From UHGV virus genome UHGV-1468037: 21,312 bases of DNA. One strand, written 5' to 3'. The DNA comes from a virus. Within the stretch, counting starts at the first letter, position 1. The number at the start of each line of letters is the position of its first letter. Below, piece by piece: positions 2,481 to 16,646 of the stretch. A model generated the notes under the pieces. That model had not been told where the DNA came from and did no database searches. It saw only the letters and a program-made list of their open reading frames with translations. A program made the position numbers and the translations under genes.

Positions 2481-2778
2481 GTTTAGACCTCGTTATTTTG
2501 AAAATCTGAACTACGTTACCGCGCGTTTTAATGACTGCAGCAAGCATGACAGCGTTGATAATGACCTCAGATAAATCCACAACCATTGGCGTGCGTAACC
2601 AGATTGCATAAGCGACACGAACTGGAATGCTGGCCGCAGCAACAATCAGGAAATAAGCAAGCCACCCACCCCATCGCCTGTGTTGAGAACCGTTTCTCCG
2701 AAATGTGGCAACTCGAACTGCTATACCGGCGCAAATAACCGCATTGGTGATAAGCAAAAAAAGCTCATGAGTTACCAT
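2470..2778 (-). CDS. Small membrane protein of lysis cassette (holin or antiholin candidate)
   Basis: 102 aa with 2-3 hydrophobic helices. Overlaps the endolysin start and the upstream membrane-protein gene. Confidence 0.55.
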
Positions 2779-3178
2779 CGTCTTTTCTCCCCGGAATTAA
2801 CTCGCGTGGATTATCGGAACGGTGATAGAGCCAGATCCCAATTCGCACAGCGACGATTGCTGACACAAATGCACCGGCAGAGAAAACAATCCCTTTCTCG
2901 AAAGAATCCTGTGTGATTGTAGGGATCAGGCTGGCTATGCCGATAAGAATTGATGCTGCTGGTTTGTAGAATAGAAGTCCGCAGAGAAAGCTAAGCATCG
3001 ACAAGAGCACGCGACGACGAATGGGATACTCTACCGCAGAGGTAACAAAAATCACCGCCCCAGCCAAAGACCCCAAAGCAACCTCAGGAGGAACTCCTGC
3101 TATCACTGCCGCCAAAGAACTCATGCTAAGCCACTGATTTAAAGTTTCACTGGTTAGTTGAGCTGACATGTTTTCCAC
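2765..3178 (-). CDS. Multi-TM membrane protein of lysis cassette (holin candidate)
   Basis: 137 aa with about 4 predicted TM segments. First gene of the lysis cluster, downstream of an AT-rich intergenic region. Confidence 0.55.
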   Translation of the reverse strand: MENMSAQLTSETLNQWLSMSSLAAVIAGVPPEVALGSLAGAVIFVTSAVEYPIRRRVLLSMLSFLCGLLFYKPAASILIGIASLIPTITQDSFEKGIVFSAGAFVSAIVAVRIGIWLYHRSDNPRELIPGRKDDGNS

Positions 3179-3535
3179 CGTTTATATGCATAACTACCTC
3201 CTGAACAGTAAAGCATTACGCATGATAAACCATTTATGGTTTTTTGTTACCCAATATTACCAATCCAATTCGCGATGGTCAAAACATATCCACAGCGGTA
3301 AGTTTGAGTGTTTTCATTTCCAAAACTTTATACAATAATATATGCAGTCTGTTATTTTTACGCACAATAAAAACACGATACCAGCTATTTCGCCATAAAT
3401 ACAATTTCCTTTAATGCTGCCAACAGTGCCTGCAAAACATATAACAGAACACATAAATAACAGGCATAATATAGATTTAATAATCTAAGTGCATATAAAT
3501 ATCATTTAAGAAGTTAAGAGCATTATTATAATAAC

Positions 3536-3565
3536 AATAACCCCGCTGTTTTATTCGGGGTTATT
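3536..3565. terminator. Bidirectional terminator hairpin downstream of the tail fiber gene
   Basis: 10-bp stem AATAACCCCG / CGGGGTTATT with a 10-nt loop, flanked by T-rich sequence on both strands; 10 bp past the tail fiber stop. Confidence 0.6.
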
Positions 3566-3575
3566 GCATTTATTA

Positions 3576-6551
3576 TTACATTGACATTAATATAAACATG
3601 GCTAATTCGTCATAACGAATTCCGTAGCGTCCTCCTGCTTTTTTTACAAGAATCATATCTCCTGTTTTATATTGAGAATAAATTTTCTCACCTGTATCAG
3701 GATCTGTGCTCTCTTCAGTTATCACCTCTTCATCCCATACGTCAGGCCATTCATCGTAACACCAAAAAGCATATTGCTCAGGGTTTAAACCATGCTTTCT
3801 AAGAATATCCCCTACGGTTTGAGCGCCAACGCCAAAATGATACCTGGACGACTCAATTCCTTTGTGATTAATTGAGTCATTAAATTTAAATTTATAGATG
3901 ACTGACTTTATTTCAATAGCGGCATTACGCTCTGCATTAAGAATATCATATCTTGTTTTAAGAGTTTCATCTGACGTATTGATTGACCCGGTTCCTGCAT
4001 AGATAACAGAGCATCTGTTTGATGGCTGTCCAATAGCTTTAACATTATCATCAACAGGAGCTATTTTATTAGCATCTGCCAACCACCAGTCTGTTCCATC
4101 AGCGTGACCGATTCTTACTCTTATCCCACTTCTAATATTTAAACTTCCAGTATTGCTCTGTAAATTACAATCTCCTGACGTTGGTCCAAGCAGTACAGTT
4201 TTACCAACACCACATACTACTCTGGCATTTCCTTTTTGTGATACGAGTCTTGACTCACCTCCTGACTGCTCAGGAAGAGATTTATGGTCTATAAATGCAT
4301 CGCGGGGGTTAAATACACCGTCTCCAGAATTATATCTTCCTCCTGTATAGTTGTTAAATACAGGACCCCAGTCAACGCCATTGCCTTCAGAGCACCCGAC
4401 CATTCTAAGCACTCGAGTATTCCCTGCTGCATATGGTAATGAGCTTGTTGATTGCCGGGAAGCTATCATACGTGCTCCATAACCAATAGCATTACCACCA
4501 TTTATAGTTACATATGCTTGCTGGCTTTCGAAATATGTACTGTAAAAGTTCATATTTCCACAGTCATGCAGATGAATAAGAACATCATCCCATCCCTGAA
4601 TGGTTCCCGCATGTACCTGTACACCGCGAACTGGTTCCCCTGAAACCTCCATACACTCTGATGGCCGGCTGAATGGCTGAGACAGGTATTGCGATGTGGC
4701 AAGCAGATGTGTGTGGTGATACAGGCTGGTAATGTAGCAATCGAAAAATTGCGTTCCCGCCATACCAAAGTTATCTATGTCATTTCGCCGTATAGTAGAA
4801 CCTACTGTTGCCTCAGAAGCGTTAGACACTCCAGTAAATACTAACTTATCACCGGATACGGATAATCCTGAATAAGTGAAATTCCTGCCTCCAGATCTTA
4901 AAACCCCGGACGTTTCGAAGGTGTGGCTTGCTGACCATGGGATTTCGATAGTGCTGGACGTTACCGCTGTAATTCGGAATACATCATGGGCGCGGATCGA
5001 AATACCCTTGAATCCCTGGAATCTACAGTGATAATAGTTTTCATCCTCGCCCTGAGCGGCCAGCGTGCCAGATACAGGAATGTTCGTTTTTAAAAGTGCC
5101 GTCTTGCGCCAGTATCCAACCACCTGCAAATTGCGGTATTCATTGCCAAAAGACGCACGTGACCAAATACCTACATCCCACTCATCGCCAAGACCGGTAT
5201 TTGCAATGTCTTTATAACCATCCAGCCCATTGAAATATGGAACAACACGAAAGTTCTCAAGGCGAACACATCCTGTCTCAGGCATCAATATTGCGGCAGA
5301 GAATGGTTTAAGCGTGGCTCTTGTAGTCCCATTAGCATCACCGTTAGTAAAATCCAATAAATCATATGATGACGCAGGTGCCGTTGTTGTATACGGGTCT
5401 TCGGAAGATGGATTAGAAACCACACCACCACTAACATCCATATTAGAAACACAATCTACAGTATATTTTTTATTTCCTACCCCGTACATCAGGAATGTGG
5501 TCCCTGTGGTAATATCAGGAGCAAATGTTGCAGTATATCCAGAGACCCATTTGCCCACACCAAGACCAATTATCCCACCACCAGAAACAGGTGTTAACGT
5601 ATCCGTTATTACATACGCATTATCAGTACCATAAATAACCTTTCCTGTGTTAATGGCAGCTTGCCACGCGGCCCAGTCTATTGACTGAGATAATGAGTCA
5701 ACAAAAGGATATAAGGATTTTGCTTCAGAAATTGAAGAAAACCTCTCAGATAATGGATGATATTTCCCATCCCCAATTGCTCCGAATTGTTTTACATTTA
5801 AGAAAAGAGCATTGTTTTCATGCTGAGTTATAGTTACAGCCCAGGCAAATGGCTGCCTTACACCAATTAATGCATCACCTTTTCCTTCTCCTGCGCTAGA
5901 TAATTGCAGAAGAACATCTGCGGCACTGCCAGAAGGCACAGGTACACCTATAGGTTTACCATTGACGATACCAATGACAGTTTCTTCCAGTAAATGAACT
6001 GGAGGAAGTGGTTCAATAAAATTATCTGGAACCCGTAATGTCCTGTTAATATTCACATTAACAATATTATCAACATAATTCTTTGTAGCTGCATCTTGAG
6101 GCTTGGAAGGATCGCGCAAATTGCGGATGTAATTATTCAAAGCATCGTAATAGTTTGCCACAAATGATGGTTTGCGCAGCGCCAGGCTAAACCAACTGCG
6201 GACTTGCTGTATCAGCATCGTCAGCTTATCTAACGCGTCTTCATGCACCTCAGCGAAAAACTTTCCCTGATTTCGCAGATCAGTTTCCTGCGTAACCGGT
6301 AGCTCTCGTGATATAGAAATCTGATAACCGTTAGCTAACGCCTTCGACAGAATTACATTACCGCCATTATATCCACCAGCCCCAGTGACAGTGTAATCAG
6401 TATCAAGAGCCAGCACAGCGATATTTTCGTCAAGGTCAACCACCTGTACTGCCAGATCAGATTCCTTGAAAACCCTAAAGGTATACGGAAATGATGTCGT
6501 AACGCCGTTACCTGTGTATTCGTTGTGGTCAACTTCGGTTGAGACCGTCAT
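3576..6551 (-). CDS. Tail fiber/tailspike with conserved N-terminal virion-attachment domain, central probable glycanase region, and C-terminal intramolecular chaperone (peptidase S74-like) domain
   Basis: 991 aa. N-terminus (TGNGVTTSFPYTFRVFKESDLAVQV...EVHEDALDKLT) resembles the conserved N-terminal domain of podovirus tail fibers/tailspikes. C-terminus (IYKFKFND...HFGVGAQTVGDIL...GGRYGIRYDEL) resembles the self-cleaving chaperone domain. GGAG RBS 8 nt upstream of the start. Confidence 0.75.
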   Translation of the reverse strand: MTVSTEVDHNEYTGNGVTTSFPYTFRVFKESDLAVQVVDLDENIAVLALDTDYTVTGAGGYNGGNVILSKALANGYQISISRELPVTQETDLRNQGKFFAEVHEDALDKLTMLIQQVRSWFSLALRKPSFVANYYDALNNYIRNLRDPSKPQDAATKNYVDNIVNVNINRTLRVPDNFIEPLPPVHLLEETVIGIVNGKPIGVPVPSGSAADVLLQLSSAGEGKGDALIGVRQPFAWAVTITQHENNALFLNVKQFGAIGDGKYHPLSERFSSISEAKSLYPFVDSLSQSIDWAAWQAAINTGKVIYGTDNAYVITDTLTPVSGGGIIGLGVGKWVSGYTATFAPDITTGTTFLMYGVGNKKYTVDCVSNMDVSGGVVSNPSSEDPYTTTAPASSYDLLDFTNGDANGTTRATLKPFSAAILMPETGCVRLENFRVVPYFNGLDGYKDIANTGLGDEWDVGIWSRASFGNEYRNLQVVGYWRKTALLKTNIPVSGTLAAQGEDENYYHCRFQGFKGISIRAHDVFRITAVTSSTIEIPWSASHTFETSGVLRSGGRNFTYSGLSVSGDKLVFTGVSNASEATVGSTIRRNDIDNFGMAGTQFFDCYITSLYHHTHLLATSQYLSQPFSRPSECMEVSGEPVRGVQVHAGTIQGWDDVLIHLHDCGNMNFYSTYFESQQAYVTINGGNAIGYGARMIASRQSTSSLPYAAGNTRVLRMVGCSEGNGVDWGPVFNNYTGGRYNSGDGVFNPRDAFIDHKSLPEQSGGESRLVSQKGNARVVCGVGKTVLLGPTSGDCNLQSNTGSLNIRSGIRVRIGHADGTDWWLADANKIAPVDDNVKAIGQPSNRCSVIYAGTGSINTSDETLKTRYDILNAERNAAIEIKSVIYKFKFNDSINHKGIESSRYHFGVGAQTVGDILRKHGLNPEQYAFWCYDEWPDVWDEEVITEESTDPDTGEKIYSQYKTGDMILVKKAGGRYGIRYDELAMFILMSM

Positions 6552-6654
6552 GTTAAATCTCCAGATAGTCGCAGCACCCGTTGCGCCGCATATCCGGTTA
6601 TTCTATTACCTGAAAAACCACATATGGATAGAAATACTGTGAATATGAATAGAT

Positions 6655-6671
6655 ATTACCTTTCGGGTAAT
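6655..6671. promoter_or_regulatory. Dyad motif copy 1 (ATTACC TTTCG GGTAAT)
   Basis: Perfect inverted half-sites TTACC/GGTAA with 5-bp spacer; one of four copies in the island; 76 bp upstream of the 85 aa gene. Confidence 0.5.
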
Positions 6672-6707
6672 TTGCAAAACGTGCTGGATAGCAAACAAAT
6701 TATTTGC

Positions 6708-6727
6708 TACTGTATAAATATACAGTT
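6708..6727. promoter_or_regulatory. LexA box (SOS operator)
   Basis: TACTGTATAAATATACAGTT: perfect CTGT-N8-ACAG with an AT-only spacer; about 20 bp upstream of the 85 aa gene start codon (6747). Confidence 0.75.
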
Positions 6728-6746
6728 ATTGCATGGAGAAGATAAG

Positions 6747-7004
6747 ATGCAGCAGTATCACTATCCACTGGAAGACGGATTTACCGAAAGGATTCACACG
6801 CCGGGAGGCGTCAGGTCACTGGTGGAGGGATCGCACTTGATGAAATTACTCCGGGATCTCGATAAGGATGGATTTAATGTCGATGGCCCACTTGCCGAAC
6901 TGACTGCACTGATTAACTACGTCACCAGCTCACAGATGTCTATGCGGGATCTGCAAACACATCTCGACTATTGTGCCGAACAATTACGAAAACAAACCCG
7001 GTAA
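6747..7004 (+). CDS. Small antirepressor-like protein; standalone paralog of the C-terminal domain of the downstream Ant-like protein
   Basis: 85 aa from ATG 6747 (GGAGA RBS). The upstream part of ORF 6624..7004 is rejected because it contains the LexA box and dyad site. Aligns by eye with the Ant-like C-terminus (LM.LL..L..DG..V.G..AELT ... RD.QTH..Y). Confidence 0.65.
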   Translation: MQQYHYPLEDGFTERIHTPGGVRSLVEGSHLMKLLRDLDKDGFNVDGPLAELTALINYVTSSQMSMRDLQTHLDYCAEQLRKQTR

Positions 7005-7010
7005 ATTTAA

Positions 7011-7028
7011 AGGCCGCAAGAGCGGCCT
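7011..7028. terminator. Bidirectional terminator between convergent genes
   Basis: Stem AGGCCGC / GCGGCCT with loop AAGA, T-rich on the plus side and A-rich before. Overlaps the stop codon of the minus-strand 242 aa gene. Confidence 0.55.
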
Positions 7029-7755
7029 ATCGTTTCGCTTTGTGCTCATCCCAGCACGTTTTGCACCATGCCATTAAGCCGTCCGCATTTTGATTATTAG
7101 GGTAAAAGCTGGTTCGTTTTCTGCGGACATTACAAATTGGGCACCACTTCATATGGCGTGTATTCTTTGGGCCATCGAGACACCTTGCACACCATTTAGT
7201 CAATCCATCTGGATTTTTTGACGATTTCCTGAATTTTTCATATGGAAGGTTTATTCTGCATCGCAAGCACTGCTTGCTACCACTTGAAACTCTGTTAGCT
7301 GATTCTTCTTTTGGCAGCGATACAGAAGGTATTCTTGCTGGCTCTGATATTGCCTGAGGTGCTTTTTTAGATGACTGAGACGATATGTCATCACCAGGGA
7401 ATCTTCCATGATATGCCGGACGCGTTGACACTCCAGGTGGAATCTCAGCTGTAAACGGCTTTGGCTGAATCAGTTGCCTCTCTTTTGCTAACTCCTGCTG
7501 TTTATAATATGTCTGGATTACCGCACTATCATAAGCAGGAGGTGCGGAAATATTAGGCGCATTACCTCCAGTTTTTTGAAACTGAGTAGAGGTGTGTTCT
7601 ATCACCTGTGTACGATTAATCGTTATCTCCCCATCTTCGGTCTTTATCGTTTTGTTATGATTAACGACCGTACGATCAGAGATCTTAGTCTTGTTCTGGT
7701 TGATAACGTAAATAATCACCGCAACCACACCAACAACTATCCAGAAAACTTCCAT
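7027..7755 (-). CDS. Membrane-anchored protein with two C-terminal zinc-ribbon (CxxC-N19/20-WCxxC) motifs; function unknown
   Basis: 242 aa. N-terminal TM helix (VFWIVVGVVAVIIYVI) followed by basic residues. Low-complexity linker. Two repeats: CLRC...WCARC and CPIC...WCKTC, in a basic context. GAGGA RBS. Divergent from the ant-like gene. Confidence 0.7.
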   Translation of the reverse strand: MEVFWIVVGVVAVIIYVINQNKTKISDRTVVNHNKTIKTEDGEITINRTQVIEHTSTQFQKTGGNAPNISAPPAYDSAVIQTYYKQQELAKERQLIQPKPFTAEIPPGVSTRPAYHGRFPGDDISSQSSKKAPQAISEPARIPSVSLPKEESANRVSSGSKQCLRCRINLPYEKFRKSSKNPDGLTKWCARCLDGPKNTRHMKWCPICNVRRKRTSFYPNNQNADGLMAWCKTCWDEHKAKR

Positions 7756-7774
7756 TGCTTTTCCTCACAATAAC

Positions 7775-7791
7775 ATTACCTTAAAGGTAAT
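7775..7791. promoter_or_regulatory. Dyad motif copy 2 (ATTACC TTAAA GGTAAT)
   Basis: Perfect 17-bp palindrome in the 5' UTR of the 242 aa gene, about 20 nt from its start codon, and at the far end of the ant-like leader. Confidence 0.5.
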
Positions 7792-7867
7792 ATCTTGCTT
7801 TCAGGTGATCAAGCGTTAAACGCAATCAACCAAATACGGTTGATTTTAATGTTTCTTCGCGCTTATC

Positions 7868-7884
7868 ATTACCTTTACGGTAAA
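7868..7884. promoter_or_regulatory. Dyad motif copy 3 (ATTACC TTTAC GGTAAA)
   Basis: Same TTACC-N5-GGTAA architecture, in the divergent intergenic region between the 242 aa gene and the ant-like gene. Confidence 0.45.
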
Positions 7885-7918
7885 TTTACATTGCACTCCT
7901 CTTGTGCCATAGTAATCG

Positions 7919-8049
7919 GGCACTGGCAAAATCCAGTGCCGGGATTGGCGTCCCGGATTACTACAGAGGCACATATGCCGCATAAGCGGTTTTTTTATGT
8001 GTAAAGCGCACCTATTCTATGGTGGGCTGTGTGGGGGCACCGAAAGGTG
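7919..8049 (+). promoter_or_regulatory. Structured leader upstream of ant-like gene (multiple hairpins including a terminator-like hairpin plus T7 run)
   Basis: Hairpins GGCACTGG/CCAGTGCC (7919-7940) and CCGGGA/TCCCGG (7939-7956) overlap and are mutually exclusive. CCGC-ATAA-GCGG followed by TTTTTTT (7978-7996). GCACC-GAAA-GGTGC (8037-8049). Confidence 0.4.
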
Positions 8050-8149
8050 CGCCGGGTCCTTTGTAGCCGGTTACGCCAACCCTGCACAGTTCACCACCAA
8101 CCGATTGGCGTCGGTAGTGGTGATTAACCTAACTACAAAGGTGATCACT

Positions 8150-8836
8150 ATGACTGCTAACGTAACCCCATCTGTTTTTCATTTTGAATCAGAAGCAACC
8201 ATTCGAGCCATTGTTATTGATGGAAATCCTTGGTTTGTTGCCAAAGACGTTATTAAAGCTCTTCAACTGACAAACCCCACTATGTCAATAAAATCTCTTG
8301 ATGATGATGAAAGGGCTAAATTTAACTTAGGCCGTCAAGGCGAAACCAATATTATCAACGAGTCAGGCCTCTACACACTGATCCTCCGCTGCCGCGACGC
8401 AGTGACACCAGGCACTATCCCCTACCGCTTTCGCAAATGGGTTACAGGTGAGGTTCTTCCTCAGATCCGCCGCACCGGAAGCTACATTAAAAACTCGCTC
8501 CCGCAGGAAGAGCGCATAAAGATGGTTGCCGACCAGGTAGCCAACGCCACGGCGTCAGCAGTAATGCAGGCGATGAAGATAGAGAACAAAACCTACAGTG
8601 CCCCACTGAAGCCAGGCTACCGCAGTCTGATTCATTCGCCGTCGGGTGTTCTCGGCCTGACGGAGAACTCATTGCTGATGAATCTGCTGAATCAGTTGCA
8701 GGACGACGGGCATGATGTATCGGGCGCGGCGGCGGAACTGACCACCATGTTCTGCTACATCGTCGGTGTGAGCAAATGCCTGCGTGATATCCAGACGCAC
8801 GCGGAGTACATCAACGACAAGGCAGGGTTCTTCTGA
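8150..8836 (+). CDS. Antirepressor-like protein with N-terminal BRO-N domain and C-terminal antirepressor-type domain
   Basis: 228 aa from ATG 8150 (AAGG 8 nt upstream). N-terminus matches the BRO-N pattern (IDGNPWFVAKDV...INESGLYTLIL...FRKWVTGEVLPQIRRTGSY). The longer ORF from 7997 would include the hairpin leader and lacks an RBS. Confidence 0.75.
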   Translation: MTANVTPSVFHFESEATIRAIVIDGNPWFVAKDVIKALQLTNPTMSIKSLDDDERAKFNLGRQGETNIINESGLYTLILRCRDAVTPGTIPYRFRKWVTGEVLPQIRRTGSYIKNSLPQEERIKMVADQVANATASAVMQAMKIENKTYSAPLKPGYRSLIHSPSGVLGLTENSLLMNLLNQLQDDGHDVSGAAAELTTMFCYIVGVSKCLRDIQTHAEYINDKAGFF

Positions 8837-8845
8837 CAGAACGGC

Positions 8846-8868
8846 GGCACAGGGATGTGCCTTTAAAT
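8846..8868 (+). terminator. Weak terminator-like hairpin after ant-like gene
   Basis: GGCACA-GGGA-TGTGCC followed by TTTAAATAATT. The T-run is short, so termination is probably partial. Confidence 0.3.
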
Positions 8869-8908
8869 AATTCTGTACAGATTGCAGACTGTGGGTGAAT
8901 AGCGTACT

Positions 8909-8925
8909 ATTACCTTAAAGGTAAA
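8909..8925. promoter_or_regulatory. Dyad motif copy 4 (ATTACC TTAAA GGTAAA)
   Basis: Core identical to copy 2. Abuts the Shine-Dalgarno AAGGAGG of the 55 aa gene. Confidence 0.5.
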
Positions 8926-8936
8926 GGAGGCGCGAT

Positions 8937-9104
8937 ATGACAGCGTTGAAAAATCGTACTCAGCACAATGAACAAGCCAAGCAATGCTGGGATGTCATTG
9001 GAAAAGTTATGCTTGGCCGCGCAAGCAAAGAGCGCGACAAGGATATGGTTTACCAGACAGGAACATCTTTCAGCGACTTCAAGGCGGCATTTCGCTCCAA
9101 ATAG
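8937..9104 (+). CDS. Small basic protein (55 aa), unknown function
   Basis: Not in the ORF track (<60 aa). ATG 8937 is preceded by a consensus SD AAGGAGG with 6-nt spacing. Translated by hand: MTALKNRTQHNEQAKQCWDVIGKVMLGRASKERDKDMVYQTGTSFSDFKAAFRSK. TAG stop at 9102-9104. Confidence 0.55.
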   Translation: MTALKNRTQHNEQAKQCWDVIGKVMLGRASKERDKDMVYQTGTSFSDFKAAFRSK

Positions 9105-9124
9105 AAGCACATTAGGAGTTTGTC

Positions 9125-9565
9125 TTGAAGTTTAACATTAGAATATCTAATAGTTTTCTAAATGGGGAAAGCAACACCCCTTTCGCTGTAGACGGACCTT
9201 TCCTTACTGACGATGAAATAAAAATCATACAAAGGTTTTTAGAAGATGTTGCCAATGGAAGGGCGCTTGTTGGAAAAAACAAGCCATCGTGGGTTGATGA
9301 TAACCATGATAAAATTCCCGGCTCAGACAATTATGAGCAAGAGAATTATTGGCATTATCATTGTGGGCCAACATGGTATCCAAACACATTTAAGAATTAT
9401 ACCATTAACTTAAATTTCAACCCTGGCGGAATGCATTCTAATGAATGCATTCATTATGCAAAAAATGATAATGAAATTGTCGTTGTTGGATTTTCAAGAG
9501 AACACATACCTTTCCTTTCATCAGATGGAAACGACAATCCGCTTTTTTATGATGAAGAAGAATAG
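9125..9565 (+). CDS. Hypothetical protein (146 aa) with acidic C-terminus, unknown function
   Basis: TTG start with AGGAG 6 nt upstream; 20 nt after the stop of the 55 aa gene, so probably an operon. Strongly AT-rich codon usage. No signal peptide. Followed by a strong terminator. Confidence 0.6.
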   Translation: MKFNIRISNSFLNGESNTPFAVDGPFLTDDEIKIIQRFLEDVANGRALVGKNKPSWVDDNHDKIPGSDNYEQENYWHYHCGPTWYPNTFKNYTINLNFNPGGMHSNECIHYAKNDNEIVVVGFSREHIPFLSSDGNDNPLFYDEEE

Positions 9566-9588
9566 CCCGCGGCGCGGGCTTTTTTGTG
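9564..9588 (+). terminator. Rho-independent terminator after the 146 aa gene
   Basis: Stem AGCCCGC / GCGGGCT with a 3-nt loop, followed by TTTTT. Confidence 0.75.
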
Positions 9589-9625
9589 TCTGCGGATTCC
9601 CACCCAGGCGGCGGTGGCATTCGTT

Positions 9626-9650
9626 AAAAACAAGGCCGCGAAAGCGGCCT
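9626..9650 (-). terminator. Rho-independent terminator after the 283 aa minus-strand gene
   Basis: Stem AGGCCGC / GCGGCCT with loop GAAA; the plus-strand A-run (9626-9630) gives a T-run on the minus strand. Same stem sequence as the hairpin at 7011-7028. Confidence 0.6.
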
Positions 9651-9656
9651 GTTTGA

Positions 9657-10508
9657 TCACTGTGCAGTTTTCGCTGATCGATTTTCAGCTCTAAATTCAA
9701 GAACCGTTTCAATATTTCTTTCCTTCAGCATATCAATAACATTTTTATTCATTTGACTATCACTGGTTAATAACTGGTAAACGTTGCTTCTCTCTTTATC
9801 AGAGTTTTCTTTAACAGCTGCTTTGCATGCCAAATGCTTATTGAAATTTTCTACATCGCTAGTACAGGAATTTACGGCTGCTGATGAAATATCAGACGCT
9901 GAAGAAACACCGTCATCCAAACGTTTTATAGCATTTTCTATACATGAGTTAAGGGAATAAACGACAACTGAGCGATACCCTTCAGACGCACACCATTCTA
10001 AATTTCTTGAAGGATCGAGTGGTTTTACTTCGCTGGATTGAATTAACTTGTCAAAAACTGACTTATATTCAATCTGTTTTTTATCTATAGCCCATACTTC
10101 AGTAGCTGATTTATAATTCCCCGTATGCCTATTAACATCAAATCCATGTTTTATAAGCAAATCTGCCCATGAAAGATTTATTGATTCATTGTTATGAGGC
10201 CATTTTCCTGTCAGAACCGCCCCCATAGACCCCATATATCCGCCATATGATGGTATAGCACCATGGCTCAGTAACTTCTCTGCAACCACAGGGCAATTAA
10301 TTACATAAGAGGCGTAAAGCCCATTCCATAAAGCCCCTCTATAGTAATCGCCACGATTAGGTTCTTTTAAGTCGATAGCCTTTGATAATTGTTCGCACGT
10401 TTTGCATGCATCAAAGTTATCCTTATTGCATTGCAATGAACTGGCAGCTGTAGGATTTACAGAGACTATTGAAAGCACTATGCCAAAAAACAAATTTATT
10501 TTTTTCAT
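9657..10508 (-). CDS. Secreted cysteine-rich protein (283 aa), unknown function; accessory (moron) gene
   Basis: Sec-type signal peptide MKKINLFFGIVLSIVSVNPTAAS. Many Cys in the mature part. AT-rich codon usage unlike the neighbouring virion genes. Start codon 1 nt after the stop of the 1129 aa gene, so likely translationally coupled. Confidence 0.7.
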   Translation of the reverse strand: MKKINLFFGIVLSIVSVNPTAASSLQCNKDNFDACKTCEQLSKAIDLKEPNRGDYYRGALWNGLYASYVINCPVVAEKLLSHGAIPSYGGYMGSMGAVLTGKWPHNNESINLSWADLLIKHGFDVNRHTGNYKSATEVWAIDKKQIEYKSVFDKLIQSSEVKPLDPSRNLEWCASEGYRSVVVYSLNSCIENAIKRLDDGVSSASDISSAAVNSCTSDVENFNKHLACKAAVKENSDKERSNVYQLLTSDSQMNKNVIDMLKERNIETVLEFRAENRSAKTAQ

Positions 10509-10509
10509 C

Positions 10510-13500
10510 CTATTTCATCTGCTCTTCAACTTTATTTAGTAATGGTGATATCGCCCACAGATTCTGAAAAGGTAGCATTTTACGGACAGCGTGGGTTTGC
10601 TGGCTGTCAAATTCTCCGTTAAGTACACCATTTGCAACCGTCGCGGCATCACCGCCAAGATCAAAGGTAGGACCAAGTAAAGCACCAATAGCATTACGAC
10701 TCTGAAACCTTGATACCGGAGGCGCACCAAACATCGCGCCAAGACCAAACCTACCGCCGCTTATGTTCTCAACGGTATTCAGCGGCTCAGAGAGCCAGCC
10801 AAGCATTCCGCCCCGGTCGATCCCCTCTTTCACAAGGTTATTCCAGCTGTAGTCGATATCGCGACCGCTTAACTTCTGTTTCATCATATAGACCATTGAG
10901 CCAAGCGCAATCGTGCCAAGCGCACCAAGATAGAATGCAGCATCGCCCTGCTGGATACCAGATACCAGCACCCTGTTATGCTGTGCGAAGATAAACGTTT
11001 TGAACTGCGTGATCATCTTCCAGCCTTCTTTACTAAAAAACAGCGGTGTATCACCTACGCCAGGCGTTACAATCACTGAGTCTACATCTTTCAGCACTGC
11101 AGACTGGAAAATCTCTCTAGCGAAACGGTCATCCCACAGATGACTATGCCCGGTTAACAGCCCGTCCATATCCTCTCCGTGCTTCCCGAATTGCTCCCCG
11201 ATTCGGCGCAGAACATCTTCATTGATGCCGACCTGTGCCATCTTCCGCATTTCACTTTTGGAGAGCGTGCCACCAGCAGAAACTTGGCGAGCCGCGTCAA
11301 GTATCCTCGACTGCACTATCATCCCAGACCATGATTTAAGTGCGCTGTTCCACTGATTCATCAGCGTCCAGTTACCGAATTTCTGCGTCATCCAGTTCAG
11401 ACCTCGCTCAGCGGCGCTTCTCCGGCTATAGGGGTCAGTAAGATCCGCTATAGCCTTTGTACGCGTAGACAGGACATAATCAAGCCCAACTGCCATTTCT
11501 CGCAAATCCCTGGTTGCAATTTTCACTGAGTCCATATTTTTAAGCATGCTTACCATTGGTCCGAGAGATTTTCTCAGGCCATGCTGCATCATCGGTCGCA
11601 TCAGATCAGTTGCAGCGGAGACAGTCATTCCACCAAGCAAACGGAGGAAGTTAATATTCCTAGCAACTCGCCCGGCACGAACAAAGAAACTGCGTGGATC
11701 TTGAGGTGCACCGTAAGTACCAAGCAGTCGATCACGCATAGCCGTAATATCCCTAATATCAGCCTCCCGTTGCTTCTCAAGAACTGCACGTCGTTTAGGT
11801 GTTTTAGCCTCTTTTATTAGCCGGGTATATTCCTCACTAACCTGACGGATTTGCTCCCCCATATCTTTACGGCCAAACTGCGCAGTCAGCTCAATTTCTG
11901 GTGCCACCTGCCGGAGATAACTTTCCATGATGTAGTTAACATCTGATTCAAGAAAATCTTCTATACGCTCATCAGGAATAAGCAGCGTTCTGCTTTTAGT
12001 GAAACCAGCCCGACCAACGAGTCTCTCTGGGATAATATCGGCTGGTACAAGCCCGGAAGGTGCGCCTATTATTTTATTCACGATCTCGTCAGCAGCGTCC
12101 TCTGCTTCCTCTCGGGATAGAGGCTCCATCTGCTTCAGTGCTCGCTCGCGGCTTGCATTCAGCCTTGTGGTTGAATTTGCCCGTTTTTGCAGTCGGCGAA
12201 GCTCAGAACGATATTTCCGTGGATTATCCAGCAACTCCATATGGCGCTGATAGACAGGAAGCTCACTCTTTGCCTGCGCTATATCATCAAGGCGTGTTTT
12301 AAGGTCAGAGCTTTCTTTCATCATTCTTGCCTGAAGTTTTTCTGATGAAGTCTCGGCCAACTCTTTTTCTATTCTTGTAAGACGCGCCTGTGTGTCAGTC
12401 TCCTGAGATATAAGCTTATTTCGTTTATCCAGTTCTTCCATGAGTAGAATTTTTTTACCAGACCATTTCTCCGCTTCAGCGATTTCACTAGCGAGAGCAT
12501 CAGCGCGCGGTGCTGATTCCTCTGCAGTTTTTAGCAATGAATTTATCTTTTCAATTCGCTGACCTGCTTTGTCAGCACCTTTGGCACTAATCCCTTGTAT
12601 CCAGTTGGCAATTCGCCCTCTGAATTCAGTGCGGTCGGAAAGTATCTTATCGAACTTATAAATGCGGGGAAGATAACTCTTCGCCGTCACGACATCGATA
12701 TCCTCAGGAAGGATCCCCAATTCCTGCATACGGGCTTTTGTGGTCTCAAAAATGGGGCGGATTCTGGCGGCTGCTTGTGAAACCTCAGGAATATCACTCT
12801 GATCACCACGGCGCATAGCCATGCCAACAGCTTCATTGAAATCAATAAAGTTCATCCTCTTCACGCCGCGGGCGCTGACAGATTTGCTGTACTGCTGGTA
12901 AGCATCACGAGTAGCTTCCATCTGCTTATAAAGCATGGCGTCGTATTGCTTAATCTTAGTCTCGACTGCCGTAAACGTAGCCAACCCCTCATCATTTTTG
13001 GCGAAGAAATAGTTATTTTCGGCAAGCTGCTGGTTAATCTGACGGGAGACAAGAGATGGTGATTGCGCCAAGCGGCCAGCAGGAGTGACACTCAACGTTT
13101 TGTTAGCAAGTCCAAGTCCAGCGAGCTGTTCCTGATCGAGTGTGGTATTGAAAACCTGAGCTGCACCAATGCTTTGAGGAGAATCCATACCTCGCAAATG
13201 ATTACCTACTGAGTTAACCACTGCCTCGCGCGCGCTAGGTCCAGCAAGTAGCTGTGCACCAGCACCAAGGATCCCACCAACGAGAGCATCAACAACAACG
13301 TTCGATACGCTCTCCATCGGTGAGCGAGCTTCCTGAGTGGCCTGTAATGCGGCTTCTGATACTCCCCCACCAGCAGCATTCGCCAGGGCAAAACGCCCTG
13401 CCGTCTCAGCAATACTTCCTCCACGCGCTACCGCCCCTACAGGGATGAACATTGCAGCCACATTAACCGGGTCTATCATTCCCATTGCTAAGCTTGAAAT

Positions 13501-13899
13501 AGTACCAGCACCACCCATTTCAGATAGATATTCTCTATCTGTTCTTTGCTTATCGATTCGATGTTTAATTGCCATTGTTTCTTCATGCGAACCGGAGTTG
13601 ATAAACGAATCTGCAAAATCTTCATAGCCTTTAATATCTGCTGCATCGTTATCAAATGGGTTATATCCTTCAACCCTGTCAAACTGACTGAAAGGAGCAC
13701 TGGCAATAAAGCTACCCAGCGTGTTATCTATACGAAATGCTGCTTGTCTAGACCTTTGAACGCGTTGATCACTGGTAAATGGGTTCACAGCAGAAAGCAA
13801 AGAAGGTGTTTCCATATAGAAATTACTGTCATCAGGTGCTGCTATTTGCTGAATATCCTCGCCAAGCAACTCTTTAGGATCCTGTTCATATATCGGCAT
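10510..13899 (-). CDS. Large internal virion/ejection protein (T7 gp16-position analog)
   Basis: 1129 aa. Last and largest of four consecutive overlapping genes following the tail-tube genes. Gly/Ala-rich and coiled-coil segments. No recognisable enzymatic motif seen by eye. Confidence 0.6.
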   Translation of the reverse strand: MPIYEQDPKELLGEDIQQIAAPDDSNFYMETPSLLSAVNPFTSDQRVQRSRQAAFRIDNTLGSFIASAPFSQFDRVEGYNPFDNDAADIKGYEDFADSFINSGSHEETMAIKHRIDKQRTDREYLSEMGGAGTISSLAMGMIDPVNVAAMFIPVGAVARGGSIAETAGRFALANAAGGGVSEAALQATQEARSPMESVSNVVVDALVGGILGAGAQLLAGPSAREAVVNSVGNHLRGMDSPQSIGAAQVFNTTLDQEQLAGLGLANKTLSVTPAGRLAQSPSLVSRQINQQLAENNYFFAKNDEGLATFTAVETKIKQYDAMLYKQMEATRDAYQQYSKSVSARGVKRMNFIDFNEAVGMAMRRGDQSDIPEVSQAAARIRPIFETTKARMQELGILPEDIDVVTAKSYLPRIYKFDKILSDRTEFRGRIANWIQGISAKGADKAGQRIEKINSLLKTAEESAPRADALASEIAEAEKWSGKKILLMEELDKRNKLISQETDTQARLTRIEKELAETSSEKLQARMMKESSDLKTRLDDIAQAKSELPVYQRHMELLDNPRKYRSELRRLQKRANSTTRLNASRERALKQMEPLSREEAEDAADEIVNKIIGAPSGLVPADIIPERLVGRAGFTKSRTLLIPDERIEDFLESDVNYIMESYLRQVAPEIELTAQFGRKDMGEQIRQVSEEYTRLIKEAKTPKRRAVLEKQREADIRDITAMRDRLLGTYGAPQDPRSFFVRAGRVARNINFLRLLGGMTVSAATDLMRPMMQHGLRKSLGPMVSMLKNMDSVKIATRDLREMAVGLDYVLSTRTKAIADLTDPYSRRSAAERGLNWMTQKFGNWTLMNQWNSALKSWSGMIVQSRILDAARQVSAGGTLSKSEMRKMAQVGINEDVLRRIGEQFGKHGEDMDGLLTGHSHLWDDRFAREIFQSAVLKDVDSVIVTPGVGDTPLFFSKEGWKMITQFKTFIFAQHNRVLVSGIQQGDAAFYLGALGTIALGSMVYMMKQKLSGRDIDYSWNNLVKEGIDRGGMLGWLSEPLNTVENISGGRFGLGAMFGAPPVSRFQSRNAIGALLGPTFDLGGDAATVANGVLNGEFDSQQTHAVRKMLPFQNLWAISPLLNKVEEQMK

Positions 13900-16646
13900 T
13901 ATTTGCCCCCTGCGTATATATTGCTCGGAAGGTAATTGGCTGAACCATAACCGAATGGTTTGGTCAGATCTGGAGGAGTATATCCATCTTTATTGCTGAA
14001 CTGCGGCAGCGGATTGCCTTCTCTCCGCACTCTAGCCTCATCAACACGCTGTTGCTGGAACTGAATGGTTTGCCTGTACATTGGAGATGTCAGCTGATCC
14101 GGCTTGAAACGAACAGGGAGACCATTTTCTCCAATATAATTTCTCGGTTCTATCGCTCCGTTTGCGTCAGGCTGTAAAACCATAACAGCATAACTCCTAT
14201 CCCTTGCCGTAAGGCCATCAGAAACAAGTATTAAGTCCGTATCACTGCGAGGACCGCCAAAGGATTTTGATTTAAGCTCGCGTTTTTCCTGCTCCCACTG
14301 CCCCTGTATCCAGTTACCAGCACCATTATTTACTCCGTACAATGCCTCAGGTGCATACTTCATAACCTCTGCTTTGCCATTAACTGTAGAAACTCCCCAG
14401 GTGGTTCTGATCATGGCATTGGTCATTTTCTCAGCCTGTTCTGCATCGCCACCTGTCTGTACAAAGTTAGCATCGTAAATTGTCTGGTAATCTCGCTGAT
14501 AGGCCGCATTTGATTTTCCTGGATCGGTAATATCCGGAGACCACGAACCAAAGGAAGTCAGACTGCTGGCGTTATTTTGTGCAGCAGTTGCCCTCGCCGC
14601 GACATATTTTTTGTCTCGCATGGCAGTGGAAAGCATCTGTTTCATTCGGTCATCCTGTTGGAACACCTGGCTGTAAGCCATATCAACAGCCTTATCCTCC
14701 GGCACGCCAGCGCGGGAATAATCGTAAACCTTGCCGTAAAATGCCATCGTACTTTTATCAAGTGTTGCCGCTGCCGCCGGATTATTATCGAATAACTGAC
14801 CGTAGAATTTTGCCATCGGGACAACCAGCGCAGGATCTCTTGATGTTGCTCCACTGTTAAGCATTGTTTTAACCTGAGTTGGTATCATGCCGCTTTTAGT
14901 TGTGACGGTGACCAGTGTATTGATGCTCTGCGGATCAGATATGGAAAACGAAGGCGCGATATCCTGCGCGAAATAACGGTCTACCGCTGCCTGATTGTTT
15001 TTGTCGTTAGGGTCCAGCGGGAAGTTATTTTGCATTGAAGACACGAACCTGTTTCTTCCCTGCTGAATCTCCCACTCCCTATCCATCTCTTTAAATTTGG
15101 CCTGCATTTTCTCCCAGCGTTGCTGGTTAGCTGCAAATCCAAGAGCGTTTGGATCCTGTGGACGTAAACGTTCAAGAATGTCTTGTCGTCCTTCTGGAGT
15201 GAGGTCTTTAGCGGCACCAATGACACCTCCATATTGTATCTGCGCCTGCATATCCTTCCACTTCATAGCGCCAATGCGCGGACCATTGGCCCGGATAAAA
15301 TCGTCCTCAGAAGGTAACTTCTCAGGTTTCAATCCTTCATCAAGGGCTGAATATGCATCTTTAACTACGGTGCTAAGCTGGTCCGCATACTGCTGGCGGT
15401 ACTGATTTCTCAGCTCATTAGCCTGCCTCAATGCCTGTATTTGCATTTGAGGGCTCATAGCGTCAAATGCCGCATTGCCCGTATAACGCTTAGGTGAATC
15501 AAGGTTAGTTAGACCAAGGGCTGCCGAGATACCAGTTTCAAGCTGTTCGGTGCTATAAGGCATACTGCCATTTTCGTGTTTAATAATCCCAGCACATAAA
15601 GCAGCTAGTGTCTTTGGGTTAGAGATATCAAGCTGATCATTCTCCCCAACACCAAGCTCACTACACAATGCCCTAATATAAGCATCAGTATTATTACCAT
15701 CACTAGCCGGAGCATAGCGATTAACAATCTCGCTAACGGTGTCATAGCCTTGACGCTGGTAAGACAACATATTTTTACCCAACGCGCGGATTCCATGCTC
15801 AGGGGTAGCAAACGTTGCAAAACGTCCATCGCTACCGATCTGACCTTCCCACGGGTTAGATTTGCTCGCTTCAATATTGCCAGGGTTATTATTACGTAAA
15901 CCACGAGCATCCAATGAATTACCATGTGATATTGCACGACTCACACCATCAAGATCCCCTGGCTCTCCATTAACCTGAAGAAACTCGTTGTATTTTTGAG
16001 CGATATTTCCTATCCATGCTTGCTGCCCCATTTGTTCCTTGAGCTGAGTTTTCTGCTGAACACGCCACTCATCAGGAAGCCCATGCGCATCAGCGTATTG
16101 ATCAATAGATTCAAATCGCTGCTTGGCTAAATCGACAAATGCTTGGTTATCGCTATATAGCCCCGCAGACTGAGTGACAGCCAATGCATTTCCTGACAAA
16201 TACGTTTGATCTTGGAATTGCTGAAACTGCCCAACTTCATATCGACGTGCCTGATTGTAATAAGACTGCATAGACTGCTGGAGTTGAAAGGATAATTTAT
16301 TCCTTTCCTCACTTTCAGGAATTGAGCCTAATAATGCCTGAGCCCTTTCCTGCATATTTTTCATAACAGCGTCACTCTGACCAAGAGCGTTTTTACCCTG
16401 TTTAGAAATCAGCCCATTTTCAGGGTTGTTAATCTGGTCATCTGCAAATTGGTTAAATTGCAGTAACGCCTCCTGGGCCATAGCAACATTCGCTTTCTGC
16501 CTAGCTTCACCATATGCCACCGCATACTGATCTGCGACATTCGCCAGCACCTGACCTGCTTGAGGAACATCGAAGGTCTGAAAACCACCGGTTTGCACAC
16601 CACGACTTTGCACCTGGCGTCCGGATGTAGTAGGAACAACAGGCAT
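13899..16646 (-). CDS. Large internal virion/ejection protein (T7 gp15-position analog) with an embedded conserved motif block
   Basis: 915 aa. Start/stop overlaps with neighbours. Contains the block ...GLRNNNPGNIEASKSNPWEGQ...GRFATFATPEHGIRALGKNMLSYQRQGYDTVSEIVNRYAP..., which I recall as recurring in phage virion proteins, possibly a wall-acting domain. Confidence 0.6.
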   Translation of the reverse strand: MPVVPTTSGRQVQSRGVQTGGFQTFDVPQAGQVLANVADQYAVAYGEARQKANVAMAQEALLQFNQFADDQINNPENGLISKQGKNALGQSDAVMKNMQERAQALLGSIPESEERNKLSFQLQQSMQSYYNQARRYEVGQFQQFQDQTYLSGNALAVTQSAGLYSDNQAFVDLAKQRFESIDQYADAHGLPDEWRVQQKTQLKEQMGQQAWIGNIAQKYNEFLQVNGEPGDLDGVSRAISHGNSLDARGLRNNNPGNIEASKSNPWEGQIGSDGRFATFATPEHGIRALGKNMLSYQRQGYDTVSEIVNRYAPASDGNNTDAYIRALCSELGVGENDQLDISNPKTLAALCAGIIKHENGSMPYSTEQLETGISAALGLTNLDSPKRYTGNAAFDAMSPQMQIQALRQANELRNQYRQQYADQLSTVVKDAYSALDEGLKPEKLPSEDDFIRANGPRIGAMKWKDMQAQIQYGGVIGAAKDLTPEGRQDILERLRPQDPNALGFAANQQRWEKMQAKFKEMDREWEIQQGRNRFVSSMQNNFPLDPNDKNNQAAVDRYFAQDIAPSFSISDPQSINTLVTVTTKSGMIPTQVKTMLNSGATSRDPALVVPMAKFYGQLFDNNPAAAATLDKSTMAFYGKVYDYSRAGVPEDKAVDMAYSQVFQQDDRMKQMLSTAMRDKKYVAARATAAQNNASSLTSFGSWSPDITDPGKSNAAYQRDYQTIYDANFVQTGGDAEQAEKMTNAMIRTTWGVSTVNGKAEVMKYAPEALYGVNNGAGNWIQGQWEQEKRELKSKSFGGPRSDTDLILVSDGLTARDRSYAVMVLQPDANGAIEPRNYIGENGLPVRFKPDQLTSPMYRQTIQFQQQRVDEARVRREGNPLPQFSNKDGYTPPDLTKPFGYGSANYLPSNIYAGGK

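Follow-up and report, generated by a model that had tools for sequence, protein, structure and literature searches.

The interval between positions 6,552 and 10,508 of UHGV virus genome UHGV-1468037, studied here within a 21,312-nucleotide (nt) stretch of one strand that we refer to as the window, quite probably, in our judgement, serves an epsilon15-like temperate podophage as its anti-immunity (immI-like) control centre, within and beside which cargo genes were acquired independently. Its backbone, made up of an SPC32H-type antirepressor gene (ant1) and of a second antirepressor gene (ant2) preceded by the RNAs isrK and C4, belongs to a kind of antirepressor control that has already been described, and its most novel content is a candidate RelE-fold toxin-antitoxin family in a slot predicted to be guarded by the prophage repressor, Rep. 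An earlier note on this DNA had taken the block for an AT-rich accessory island and for the likeliest home of an undescribed accessory system. As the main content of the block such a system is not borne out, the conserved core being described regulation (SPC32H-type Ant; isrK/C4/Bro-N Ant); the idea survives for the RelE-fold pair and for the ankyrin-like and zinc-ribbon sub-blocks, and not for the backbone.

Megablast of positions 6400-10700 against phage genomes returned matches to EC.W1-9 (L004), TL-2011b (L003), phiV10 (L005), phiv142-3 and ZX5, and the window is the late region of an epsilon15-like (Uetakevirus) temperate podophage. According to the open reading frame (ORF) map and the annotation of related phages, the block lies where the note had placed it, between the minus-strand ejection gene at 10510-13899 and the minus-strand tail-fibre gene at 3576-6551. 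The ORF map also confirms its mixed gene orientation and its six protein genes, with the true starts of ant1 (ATG 6747) and ant2 (ATG 8150) internal to the longest ORFs. What the note missed are isrK (7920-7996), C4 (8015-8101) and a deletion scar at 9588/9589.

An antirepressor gene behind a LexA box

The first gene of the block is shown by homology to encode an antirepressor of the SPC32H type. The elements concerned are:

6708..6727, plus strand: LexA (SOS) box TACTGTATAAATATACAGTT, a 20-mer agreeing with the consensus at 18 of 20 positions, core at 6710-6725
6747..7004, plus strand: ant1, 85-amino-acid (aa) SPC32H-type antirepressor (PDB 5D50_E, phrog_450)
7011..7028, no strand assigned: G+C-rich terminator-like hairpin between the convergent ant1 and 242-aa genes

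Residues 2-84 of the ant1 product align on residues 3-85 of PDB entry 5D50 chain E, the 'Anti-repressor protein' from the Salmonella phage SPC32H, with ~87% identity (E 1.4e-46), and the gene is a homologue of epsilon15 gp19 and phiV10 p24. The LexA box, which the earlier note had also seen, contains the one perfect CTGT-N8-ACAG (6710-6725) and ends 19 nt 5' of the ant1 start codon. It is kept at the same site in epsilon15, phiV10, EC.W1-9, Pectobacterium and other E. coli relatives. In epsilon15, phiV10 and EC.W1-9 the whole order of repressor-type dyad, LexA box, Shine-Dalgarno sequence and ATG is kept; two E. coli relatives (L007 and L008) have the same order with a degenerate dyad half-site, and upstream of the Pectobacterium ant1 the LexA box is kept and there is no dyad within 130 nt. 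The 83-aa ant1 homologues of Providencia (L019) and Morganella (L020) have neither LexA box nor dyad upstream, and the antirepressor of these Morganellaceae prophages may be controlled differently.

A passage of PMC7380047, citing Kim and Ryu 2013, describes for several Salmonella prophages how LexA cleavage leads to production of an antirepressor and inactivation of the repressor. In SPC32H, according to a passage of PMC9638917, two Rep dimers are bound by one Ant tetramer, and the Rep tetramer that binds DNA is broken up. The Rep of EC.W1-9 matches SPC32H Rep (5D50_A, E 4e-42), and from such relatives a cognate Rep is predicted for the present prophage. We infer that ant1 is regulated by LexA and Rep as follows. 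In the lysogen ant1 would be held off by host LexA on the upstream box, and probably also by Rep at the dyad O1 listed below. DNA damage would remove LexA and allow Ant1 to be made, and Ant1 would then bind Rep and break its DNA-binding tetramer, by analogy with the SPC32H Rep-Ant structure, leading to prophage induction.

Two small RNAs and a second antirepressor

Covariance models and covariation show that a second antirepressor gene, ant2, is preceded by two RNAs, isrK and a C4-type antisense RNA, whose mechanism we infer from P1/P7, P4 and Gifsy-1. The operon comprises:

7885-7913: promoter-like TTTACA-17-CATAGT (promoter scan)
7920..7996, plus strand: isrK small RNA (Rfam RF01394, 76.8 bits against a gathering threshold of 50)
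8015..8101, plus strand: C4-type antisense RNA (Rfam RF01695, full length, 79.5 bits against a gathering threshold of 45), with recognition elements b CCUUUGUAG at 8058-8066 and a ACGCCAA at 8073-8079
8105..8141, plus strand: C4 targets in the ant2 leader, a' UUGGCGU at 8105-8111 and b' CUACAAAGG at 8133-8141
8150..8836, plus strand: ant2, 228-aa Bro-N antirepressor (Pfam Bro-N, 5.2e-20)

isrK has its own intrinsic terminator (7977-7996) and holds copies of both C4 targets (7945-7951 and 7961-7969), and ant2 starts 154 nt downstream of it. Element a of C4 has two complements of 7 nt, one in the leader (8105-8111) and one in isrK (second loop, 7945-7951), and element b is complementary over 9 nt to b', which overlaps the ant2 Shine-Dalgarno sequence. 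The 3' end of C4, ...CACCACCA, is conserved and appears compatible with RNase P processing. Ant2 itself joins a Bro-N domain to a C-terminal domain that resembles SPC32H Ant: its C-terminal residues 147-223 match 5D50_E (E 1.9e-13), it is 41% identical to Ant1 (E 3e-16), and phrog_450 matches both proteins. No icd-like ORF was seen in the isrK-C4-ant2 operon. One ORF does run in frame from ATG 7997 through the C4 region (7997-8149) into ant2, 279 aa in total; in Gifsy-1 a separate orf45 at the equivalent site is needed for translational coupling (PMC4825925).

Both RNAs stand upstream of the Bro-N antirepressor gene in all seven of the relatives examined that carry ant2, including a Pectobacterium prophage, and Rfam finds neither of them in epsilon15, which is without ant2 and has gp19 only. 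Elements a and b each occur in three variants, which are compensated together in C4, leader and isrK (L009 being a further relative):

Element a in the window, phiV10, TL-2011b, L007, L008 and L009: C4 ACGCCAA, leader UUGGCGU, isrK UUGGCGU
Element a in EC.W1-9: C4 AGACCAA, leader UUGGUCU, isrK UUGGUCU
Element a in Pectobacterium: C4 GUCUCAA, leader UUGAGAC, isrK UUGAGAC
Element b in the window, EC.W1-9 and Pectobacterium: C4 CCUUUGUAG, leader CUACAAAGG, isrK CUACAGAGG (one G.U pair), except that the Pectobacterium isrK has CUACAAAGG
Element b in phiV10, TL-2011b and L009: C4 CCUUUUAG, leader CUAAAAGG, isrK CUAAAAGG
Element b in L007 and L008: C4 CCACUUAG, leader CUAAGUGG, isrK CUAAGUGG

Three-way covariation of this kind marks a functioning antisense system of the type of P1/P7 c4 and P4 CI/seqA/seqC, which are antisense RNA systems. 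In the mechanism that we propose, a second promoter, guarded by the dyad O3, would transcribe isrK, C4 and ant2, with most transcripts ending at the isrK terminator. Elements a and b of C4 would pair with a' and b' of the leader so that the ant2 ribosome-binding site is covered and Ant2 stays untranslated, and isrK, with the same a' and b' sequences, would compete for C4 or redirect it. Because its Rep-binding-type domain is common to Ant1, Ant2 would offer a second, SOS-independent route of derepression, the specificity of which would be set by the RNA sequences.

The same architecture has been dissected experimentally in Gifsy-1 (isrK-orf45/STnc1160-anrP; PMC4825925), and Hfq binding by isrK and trans-activation of antirepressor translation are findings for Gifsy-1 only (PMC4825925). 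In the Uetakevirus ZX5, overexpression of the Bro-N antirepressor found at the same position lowers lysogeny, with a prophage titre of 10^6 plaque-forming units (PFU)/mL when the antirepressor is overexpressed versus 10^8 PFU/mL with the repressor, and with repressor transcription reduced by 75% (PMC9782041). TL-2011b has, inside its larger island, an Rfam match to the sar RNA (P22 immI antisense) at 10567-10634, scoring 44.8 bits against a threshold of 43, so that a P22-type element may be present at this place in some of the relatives.

Repressor-type dyads on the non-late transcription units

The dyad motifs reported in the earlier note are copies of TTACC-N5-GGTAA, of which there are four in the block and none elsewhere in the 21 kb; when up to 3 mismatches were allowed, 10 strand-hits were obtained versus 0.55 expected.

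6656..6670: dyad O1 TTACCTTTCGGGTAA, followed by a -35-like TTGCAA at 6672-6677
7776..7790: dyad O2 TTACCTTAAAGGTAA, 21 nt 5' of the start codon of the 242-aa gene
7869..7883: dyad O3 TTACCTTTACGGTAA, immediately 5' of the isrK promoter's -35
8910..8924: dyad O4 TTACCTTAAAGGTAA, just 5' of the Shine-Dalgarno sequence and ATG of the 55-aa gene, ending 12 nt before the ATG

The RefSeq record of epsilon15 labels five ATTACC-N5-GGTAAT sites 'protein_bind, repressor, lysogeny', one of them upstream of gp19 and three beside the repressor gene. EC.W1-9 holds 11 copies of the dyad and phiV10 holds 8, all of them intergenic, and in each of these phages three dyads flank the repressor gene; dyads at 62-bp spacing stand on both sides of the repressor gene in three genomes. 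Given the epsilon15 annotation, the clustering at repressor genes and the placement at promoters and gene starts, we read the dyads as putative Rep operators, one on each of four non-late transcription units. A dyad before all four units argues against constitutive expression in the lysogen.

In EC.W1-9 and phiV10 the dyads are spread over the whole genome, including sites before the terminase and head genes, with pairs exactly 62 bp apart, a dispersed multi-operator layout that is reminiscent of P1 C1. The dyad was also considered as an autoregulatory operator of the 55-aa/146-aa cassette described below; this was rejected, as in EC.W1-9 the dyad stands before another cassette and the stand-alone Erwinia pair has none upstream.

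Independently assorting cargo

The remainder of the block consists of three cargo units, together with a remnant of a fourth gene:

7027..7755, minus strand: cargo 1, 242-aa protein with a transmembrane helix at its N-terminus and a pair of CxxC...CxxC zinc ribbons at its C-terminus
8937..9104, plus strand: cargo 2a, 55-aa partner, candidate antitoxin (phrog_8607)
9125..9565, plus strand: cargo 2b, 146-aa protein with a predicted RelE/ParE-like fold, candidate toxin, TTG start
9564..9580, plus strand: intrinsic terminator at the end of the plus-strand cargo unit
9589..9652: remnant of a membrane-protein gene of 162 nt, of which the final ~39 nt are left, with a minus-strand terminator at 9633-9650
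9657..10508, minus strand: cargo 3, 283-aa putative secreted protein with a Sec-type signal peptide, predicted ankyrin-like repeats and a Cys-rich helical C-terminal domain

Counts over 5,426 complete E. coli genomes show these units to assort independently: 524 genomes have the ant1 block, 129 the 242-aa gene, 106 the 283-aa gene and 77 the 55/146 cassette, and only 4 the whole block (4.3 kb at a coverage of at least 80%). Sister prophages keep ant1, and usually isrK-C4-ant2, and differ in the rest. Comparison of the same position in related prophages, which the note had proposed, thus identifies part of the block as variable cargo.

The 242-aa protein belongs to phrog_6762 (unknown function), shows zinc-ribbon matches to endonuclease VII and Lar-like PHROGs and has a sub-threshold Pfam match to Stc1. 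In relatives its gene is present, absent, or reduced to a remnant or pseudogene, and it occurs both in epsilon15-like prophages and in an unrelated integrative (non-epsilon15) element of Buttiauxella.

The slot 3' of ant2 holds the 55-aa and 146-aa genes here, a 108-aa protein and a YafO-family toxin in L007, and a 69-aa protein with a DUF2335 protein in L008; judged by size and position, the slot of EC.W1-9 is filled like that of L007. Some 138 further genomes match only 8880-8928, that is, the promoter-like hexamers and O4, and for this reason we regard the slot as conserved and its content as changing. The hexamers concerned (TTGCAG-17-TACTAT, 8882-8910) are weak and come from manual reading, below the threshold of the promoter scan. 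At the far end of the cassette, the junction at 9588/9589 marks a deletion of ~190 bp, including most of the 162-nt gene, which is intact as a 'transmembrane anchored protein' gene in L009, L007 and EC.W1-9. The gene that follows the last ejection gene varies likewise, encoding 283 aa here and 46 to 186 aa elsewhere.

A candidate toxin-antitoxin pair

The AlphaFold model of the 146-aa protein is confident (pLDDT, predicted local distance difference test, 91), and both fold searches made with it point to RelE/ParE toxins. Its family comprises 115 clusters at 50% identity, whose members, even the distant ones, all retain a G-x-N-K motif, an H-Y-H motif and one more His. In Pectobacterium and in Erwinia the 146-aa homologue likewise follows a homologous small ORF (36-47% identity). 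The Pectobacterium pair lies inside an epsilon15-like prophage, and the Erwinia persicina pair is chromosomal, between accA and housekeeping genes and outside any prophage. Homologues of ~45% identity to the 146-aa protein occur on 37 plasmid records, many of only 2.7-4.6 kb with two or three annotated genes, and in three of three plasmids inspected an unannotated ORF of 60-62 aa lies directly upstream. One of these plasmids (L015) carries a perfect ~46-nt palindrome, CAATCATAATAACAATACCTATATATATAGGTATTGTTATTATGATT, ~340 nt upstream of the 146-aa homologue; another (L016) carries a near-identical palindromic variant, and the third (L017) has no palindrome.

Profile libraries are silent on the pair. 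Pfam at E 10 returns nothing for the 55-aa, 146-aa and 283-aa proteins, no Pfam, NCBIfam or PADLOC match was found for the 146-aa protein, and profile searches of the PDB with the 146-aa, 283-aa and 55-aa families gave no significant match. The small partners of the 55/146 and YafO-family cassettes also show no similarity to each other.

Distribution, gene order and fold make a toxin-antitoxin module the most likely reading of the pair, one to which we give about an even chance. The cassette, a predicted RelE/ParE-like toxin with its antidote, would be driven from the conserved Rep-guarded promoter of a slot that holds YafO-type or DUF2335 cassettes in sister prophages. Although speculative, it is possible that the pair represents an uncatalogued toxin-antitoxin family in which the toxin is wired to prophage immunity and released when repression collapses, the slot being a general repressor-gated site for effectors; we offer this fuller version only tentatively.

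A predicted secreted protein at the end of the late operon

A single nt separates the stop codon of the 1129-aa ejection gene from the start codon of the 283-aa gene, and the latter gene is followed by the terminator of the late operon. The protein has a classical signal peptide, MKKINLFFGIVLSIVSVNPTAASS, and eight invariant cysteines, and its model combines an ankyrin-like N-terminal half with a confident helical C-terminal half. In a Morganella prophage the corresponding place is taken by a homologue with 41% identity. We take the 283-aa protein to be exported and made late: its gene would be the translationally coupled last gene of the late operon, and the product a periplasmic ankyrin-like protein. 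Cor, Llp and Spackle are exclusion factors, and by analogy with them a role in exclusion or protection at the level of the envelope would be the most plausible one, which is speculation.

Composition, terminators and family searches

The low GC content that the note had assigned to the whole block holds for two or three genes only. GC is 0.433 for the block and averages 0.466 over the window. Windows of the size of the block have a median of 0.456, and 11% of them fall below the block; the lowest 4-kb block (3151-7107) is that of the tail fibre. The dip is real for the 146-aa gene (GC 0.356; GC at third codon positions, GC3, 0.31) and the 283-aa gene (GC 0.370, GC3 0.29), and is smaller for the 242-aa gene (GC 0.431, GC3 0.39). 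In ant1, ant2 and the 55-aa gene GC3 is 0.52-0.57, equal to or above that of the structural genes. A horizontally acquired AT-rich island spanning the whole block was thus considered and rejected, as composition gives it no support.

The three terminators that the note had listed were recovered as hairpins at 7011-7028, 9564-9580 (plus strand) and 9633-9650 (minus strand), and the region has 11 terminator-like sites in all, versus 3.7 +/- 1.8 in shuffles. Among the six ORFs Pfam recognised only Bro-N and two sub-threshold matches, and searches of all six proteins against PADLOC (PADLOC-DB v2) and NCBIfam matched no family.

Alternative explanations

One alternative holds that the block is chiefly a moron or defence island, expressed from the prophage to exclude superinfecting phages or to defend the lysogen, as P22 sieA does. 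Such an island would share its position with P22 sieA/immI, and much of the block is indeed variable between sister prophages, two of its genes are AT-rich, the toxin-antitoxin-like cassette could act by abortive infection, and the secreted protein that ends the late operon recalls exclusion factors of the Cor, Llp and Spackle type. However, the conserved elements are regulators of induction and not defence genes, and as for the defence cargo expected by the note, PADLOC matched none of the six proteins to a known system of defence. Moron-style expression in the lysogen, also part of the note's proposal, is further argued against by the repressor-type dyad at the start of all four plus- or divergent-strand units, which predicts silence there, and the 283-aa gene, coupled to the late operon, has no promoter-like site in the 190 nt upstream. 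We consider an island of this kind improbable. It could also be asked whether the 283-aa protein is instead a virion or ejection accessory protein, given that its gene is the last of the ejection operon with no terminator in between and holds that place in the Morganella prophage as well. The Sec signal peptide and the eight invariant cysteines indicate periplasmic export, the gene is found in 106 genomes versus 524 with the ant1 block, and sister phages have unrelated small genes at that place, all of which makes a virion role very improbable.

Quite improbable, too, is that the dyads bind some other factor, a late activator for instance, or form RNA hairpins that affect translation. Several copies lie near starts (O4, and one EC.W1-9/phiV10 copy 3 nt before a start codon), GGTAA is similar to part of a Shine-Dalgarno sequence, and copies also stand upstream of terminase and head genes. 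Repressor operators are favoured by the 62-bp spacing on both sides of the repressor gene in three genomes, by the epsilon15 repressor-site annotation and by the location of O1 and O3, each exactly 1 nt 5' of a -35-like hexamer; moreover, a 5-bp A/U-rich stem would make a very weak RNA hairpin. For the 55/146 pair the competing view is of some other two-protein device, for example a host-takeover RNase of the lytic cycle accompanied by a small chaperone or regulatory protein, or else an anti-defence protein. A Rep-type operator on the cassette promoter does imply expression on derepression and not constitutive autoregulation, no antitoxin-type DNA-binding domain was found in the 55-aa partner, the Foldseek statistics of the 146-aa model are weak, and at 146 aa the protein is ~60 residues longer than classical RelE-family toxins. 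Nevertheless, the pair occurs outside phages, on ~3-kb plasmids and on the Erwinia chromosome, always with a small upstream ORF, a distribution that addiction modules typically show and that fits poorly with a role specific to the phage cycle, and a YafO-family toxin pair fills the same slot in sister prophages. We therefore rate such a device as unlikely, while keeping it in view.

Several observations weigh against the interpretation of the block as a repressor-controlled anti-immunity centre with a toxin-antitoxin cassette and an exported ankyrin-like protein. On the regulatory side, the epsilon15 repressor sites are RefSeq annotations only, some relatives have a degenerate O1 with a GGTGA half-site, the Morganella and Providencia ant1 homologues have no LexA box upstream, and the Rep gene is outside the window. 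If Rep represses ant1 tightly, loss of LexA alone may be insufficient. A consensus promoter scan gave no excess (9 found versus 9.8 expected) and resolves the isrK promoter only, those of ant1 and of the cassette being manual readings. As to the pair, no Foldseek match for the 146-aa model reaches E 0.001; Pfam assigns no toxin family to the 146-aa protein or to 42 distant members; BLASTP and profile comparison find no similarity between the 146-aa family and the YafO-family protein of the same slot; the 55-aa protein has no recognisable DNA-binding domain and is not significantly similar to the plasmid small partner (E 0.08); and the GC3 values of the two genes are unlike (0.54 for the 55-aa gene, 0.31 for the 146-aa gene). 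Finally, the 283-aa model is of moderate quality only (pLDDT 76; predicted template-modelling score, pTM, 0.53), and Pfam finds no ankyrin repeat in that protein.

Comparison with known systems

An anti-immunity control centre of this composition has its closest counterpart for ant1 in SPC32H Rep-Ant (PDB 5D50; Kim and Ryu 2013 and Kim et al. 2016, as cited in PMC7380047 and PMC9638917): ant1 is ~87% identical to the crystallised Ant, the Rep of relatives is homologous to SPC32H Rep, and the phage group, the position of epsilon15 gp19 and the upstream LexA box are common to both. Unlike in that system, a Rep-type dyad stands beside the LexA box here, and there is a second antirepressor, controlled by RNA, in which the Ant domain forms the C-terminus of a Bro-N protein.

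For the ant2 operon the likenesses are with P1/P7 and Gifsy-1. P1/P7 immI (c4-icd-ant) likewise has a C4-type RNA in the leader of the antirepressor operon that it controls, two short elements that pair with downstream targets and a promoter guarded by the repressor, as is predicted here, and the variation in recognition sequences seen here resembles P1/P7 heteroimmunity. Unlike P1/P7, the present operon has no icd-like coupling gene, b' lying directly over the ribosome site of ant2; it has an extra upstream isrK with copies of the targets, closer to P4 seqA; and its antirepressor is a Bro-N/SPC32H-Ant fusion and not P1 Ant. Gifsy-1 isrK-orf45(STnc1160)-anrP (PMC4825925) has the same order of promoter, isrK with a leaky terminator, isrK-complementary RNA and antirepressor, and is likewise read through from the isrK promoter. 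In contrast to Gifsy-1, the operon is here located in a podophage late region beside a second, LexA-controlled antirepressor, has no separate 45-codon ORF, and antQ, the target of AnrP, is not in the window.

P22 immI (mnt-arc-ant, sar) and sieA occupy the same interval between ejection genes and tailspike and follow the same logic, in which dedicated regulators together with an antisense RNA keep an antirepressor off. The positional analogy with P22 drawn by the earlier note is thus sound, the slot holding antirepressors and antisense-RNA control. Identity with a P22-type immI was rejected, position being all that is common: there is no Arc/Mnt family among the six ORFs (Pfam), no sar RNA in the window (Rfam) and no SieA-like protein.

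With type II RelE/ParE toxin-antitoxin systems (RelBE, YefM-YoeB, DinJ-YafQ, HigBA, PaaA2-ParE2, YafNO) the 55/146 pair shares a small upstream and a larger downstream gene, the predicted RelE/ParE-like fold of the 146-aa protein and an occurrence on very small plasmids, in prophages and on chromosomes; a likeness to YafNO in particular is that the slot holds a YafO-family pair in sister prophages. The pair differs from these systems in that it belongs to no Pfam or NCBIfam toxin family, its toxin candidate is ~60 residues longer, its partner lacks a recognisable DNA-binding domain, and its promoter is apparently under the prophage repressor and not autoregulated.

Other features of the window

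The genes around the block are those of the late region:

17688-20153, 13899-16646 and 10510-13899, minus strand: large internal/ejection genes
3576-6551, minus strand: tail-fibre gene
1372-3178, minus strand: holin, endolysin and spanin genes

The N-terminus of the tail fibre is common to epsilon15-like phages, and its C-terminus shows weak matches to endosialidase and to the Peptidase_S74 chaperone with a GC3 of 0.33, which suggests an exchanged receptor-binding module. The stretch at 3179-3575, between the holin-like and tail-fibre genes, is the most AT-rich of the window (GC 0.31) and contains small ORFs only; the equivalent slot of phiV10 is occupied by oac (O-antigen acetyltransferase). 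Past the lysis cassette, where phiV10 and EC.W1-9 have an integrase, there are two plus-strand ORFs (80-598 and 614-1153), one encoding a glycine-zipper/TraT-like protein of 172 aa and the other a DUF5384 protein; this pair (80-1153) is possibly another cargo spot. A tRNA scan found none.

Implications for prophage biology

These comparisons indicate that a gene to which hundreds of E. coli prophages give the label 'hypothetical' encodes an antirepressor of characterised structure, predicted to be under SOS control, and that two regulatory RNAs are encoded in the spacer, left without annotation, that leads up to the Bro-N gene. Two antirepressors with one repressor-binding domain in common, the first triggered by SOS and the second gated by RNA, would provide a compact model of how a prophage integrates two induction signals, and the natural variants of elements a and b are ready-made specificity mutants. 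If the 55/146 pair is confirmed as toxin and antitoxin, it would represent a family missed by current profile libraries. The module is present in about one in ten complete E. coli genomes, with slots that exchange toxin-like cassettes and secreted proteins, and the exchanged cargo may affect host fitness or competition between phages.

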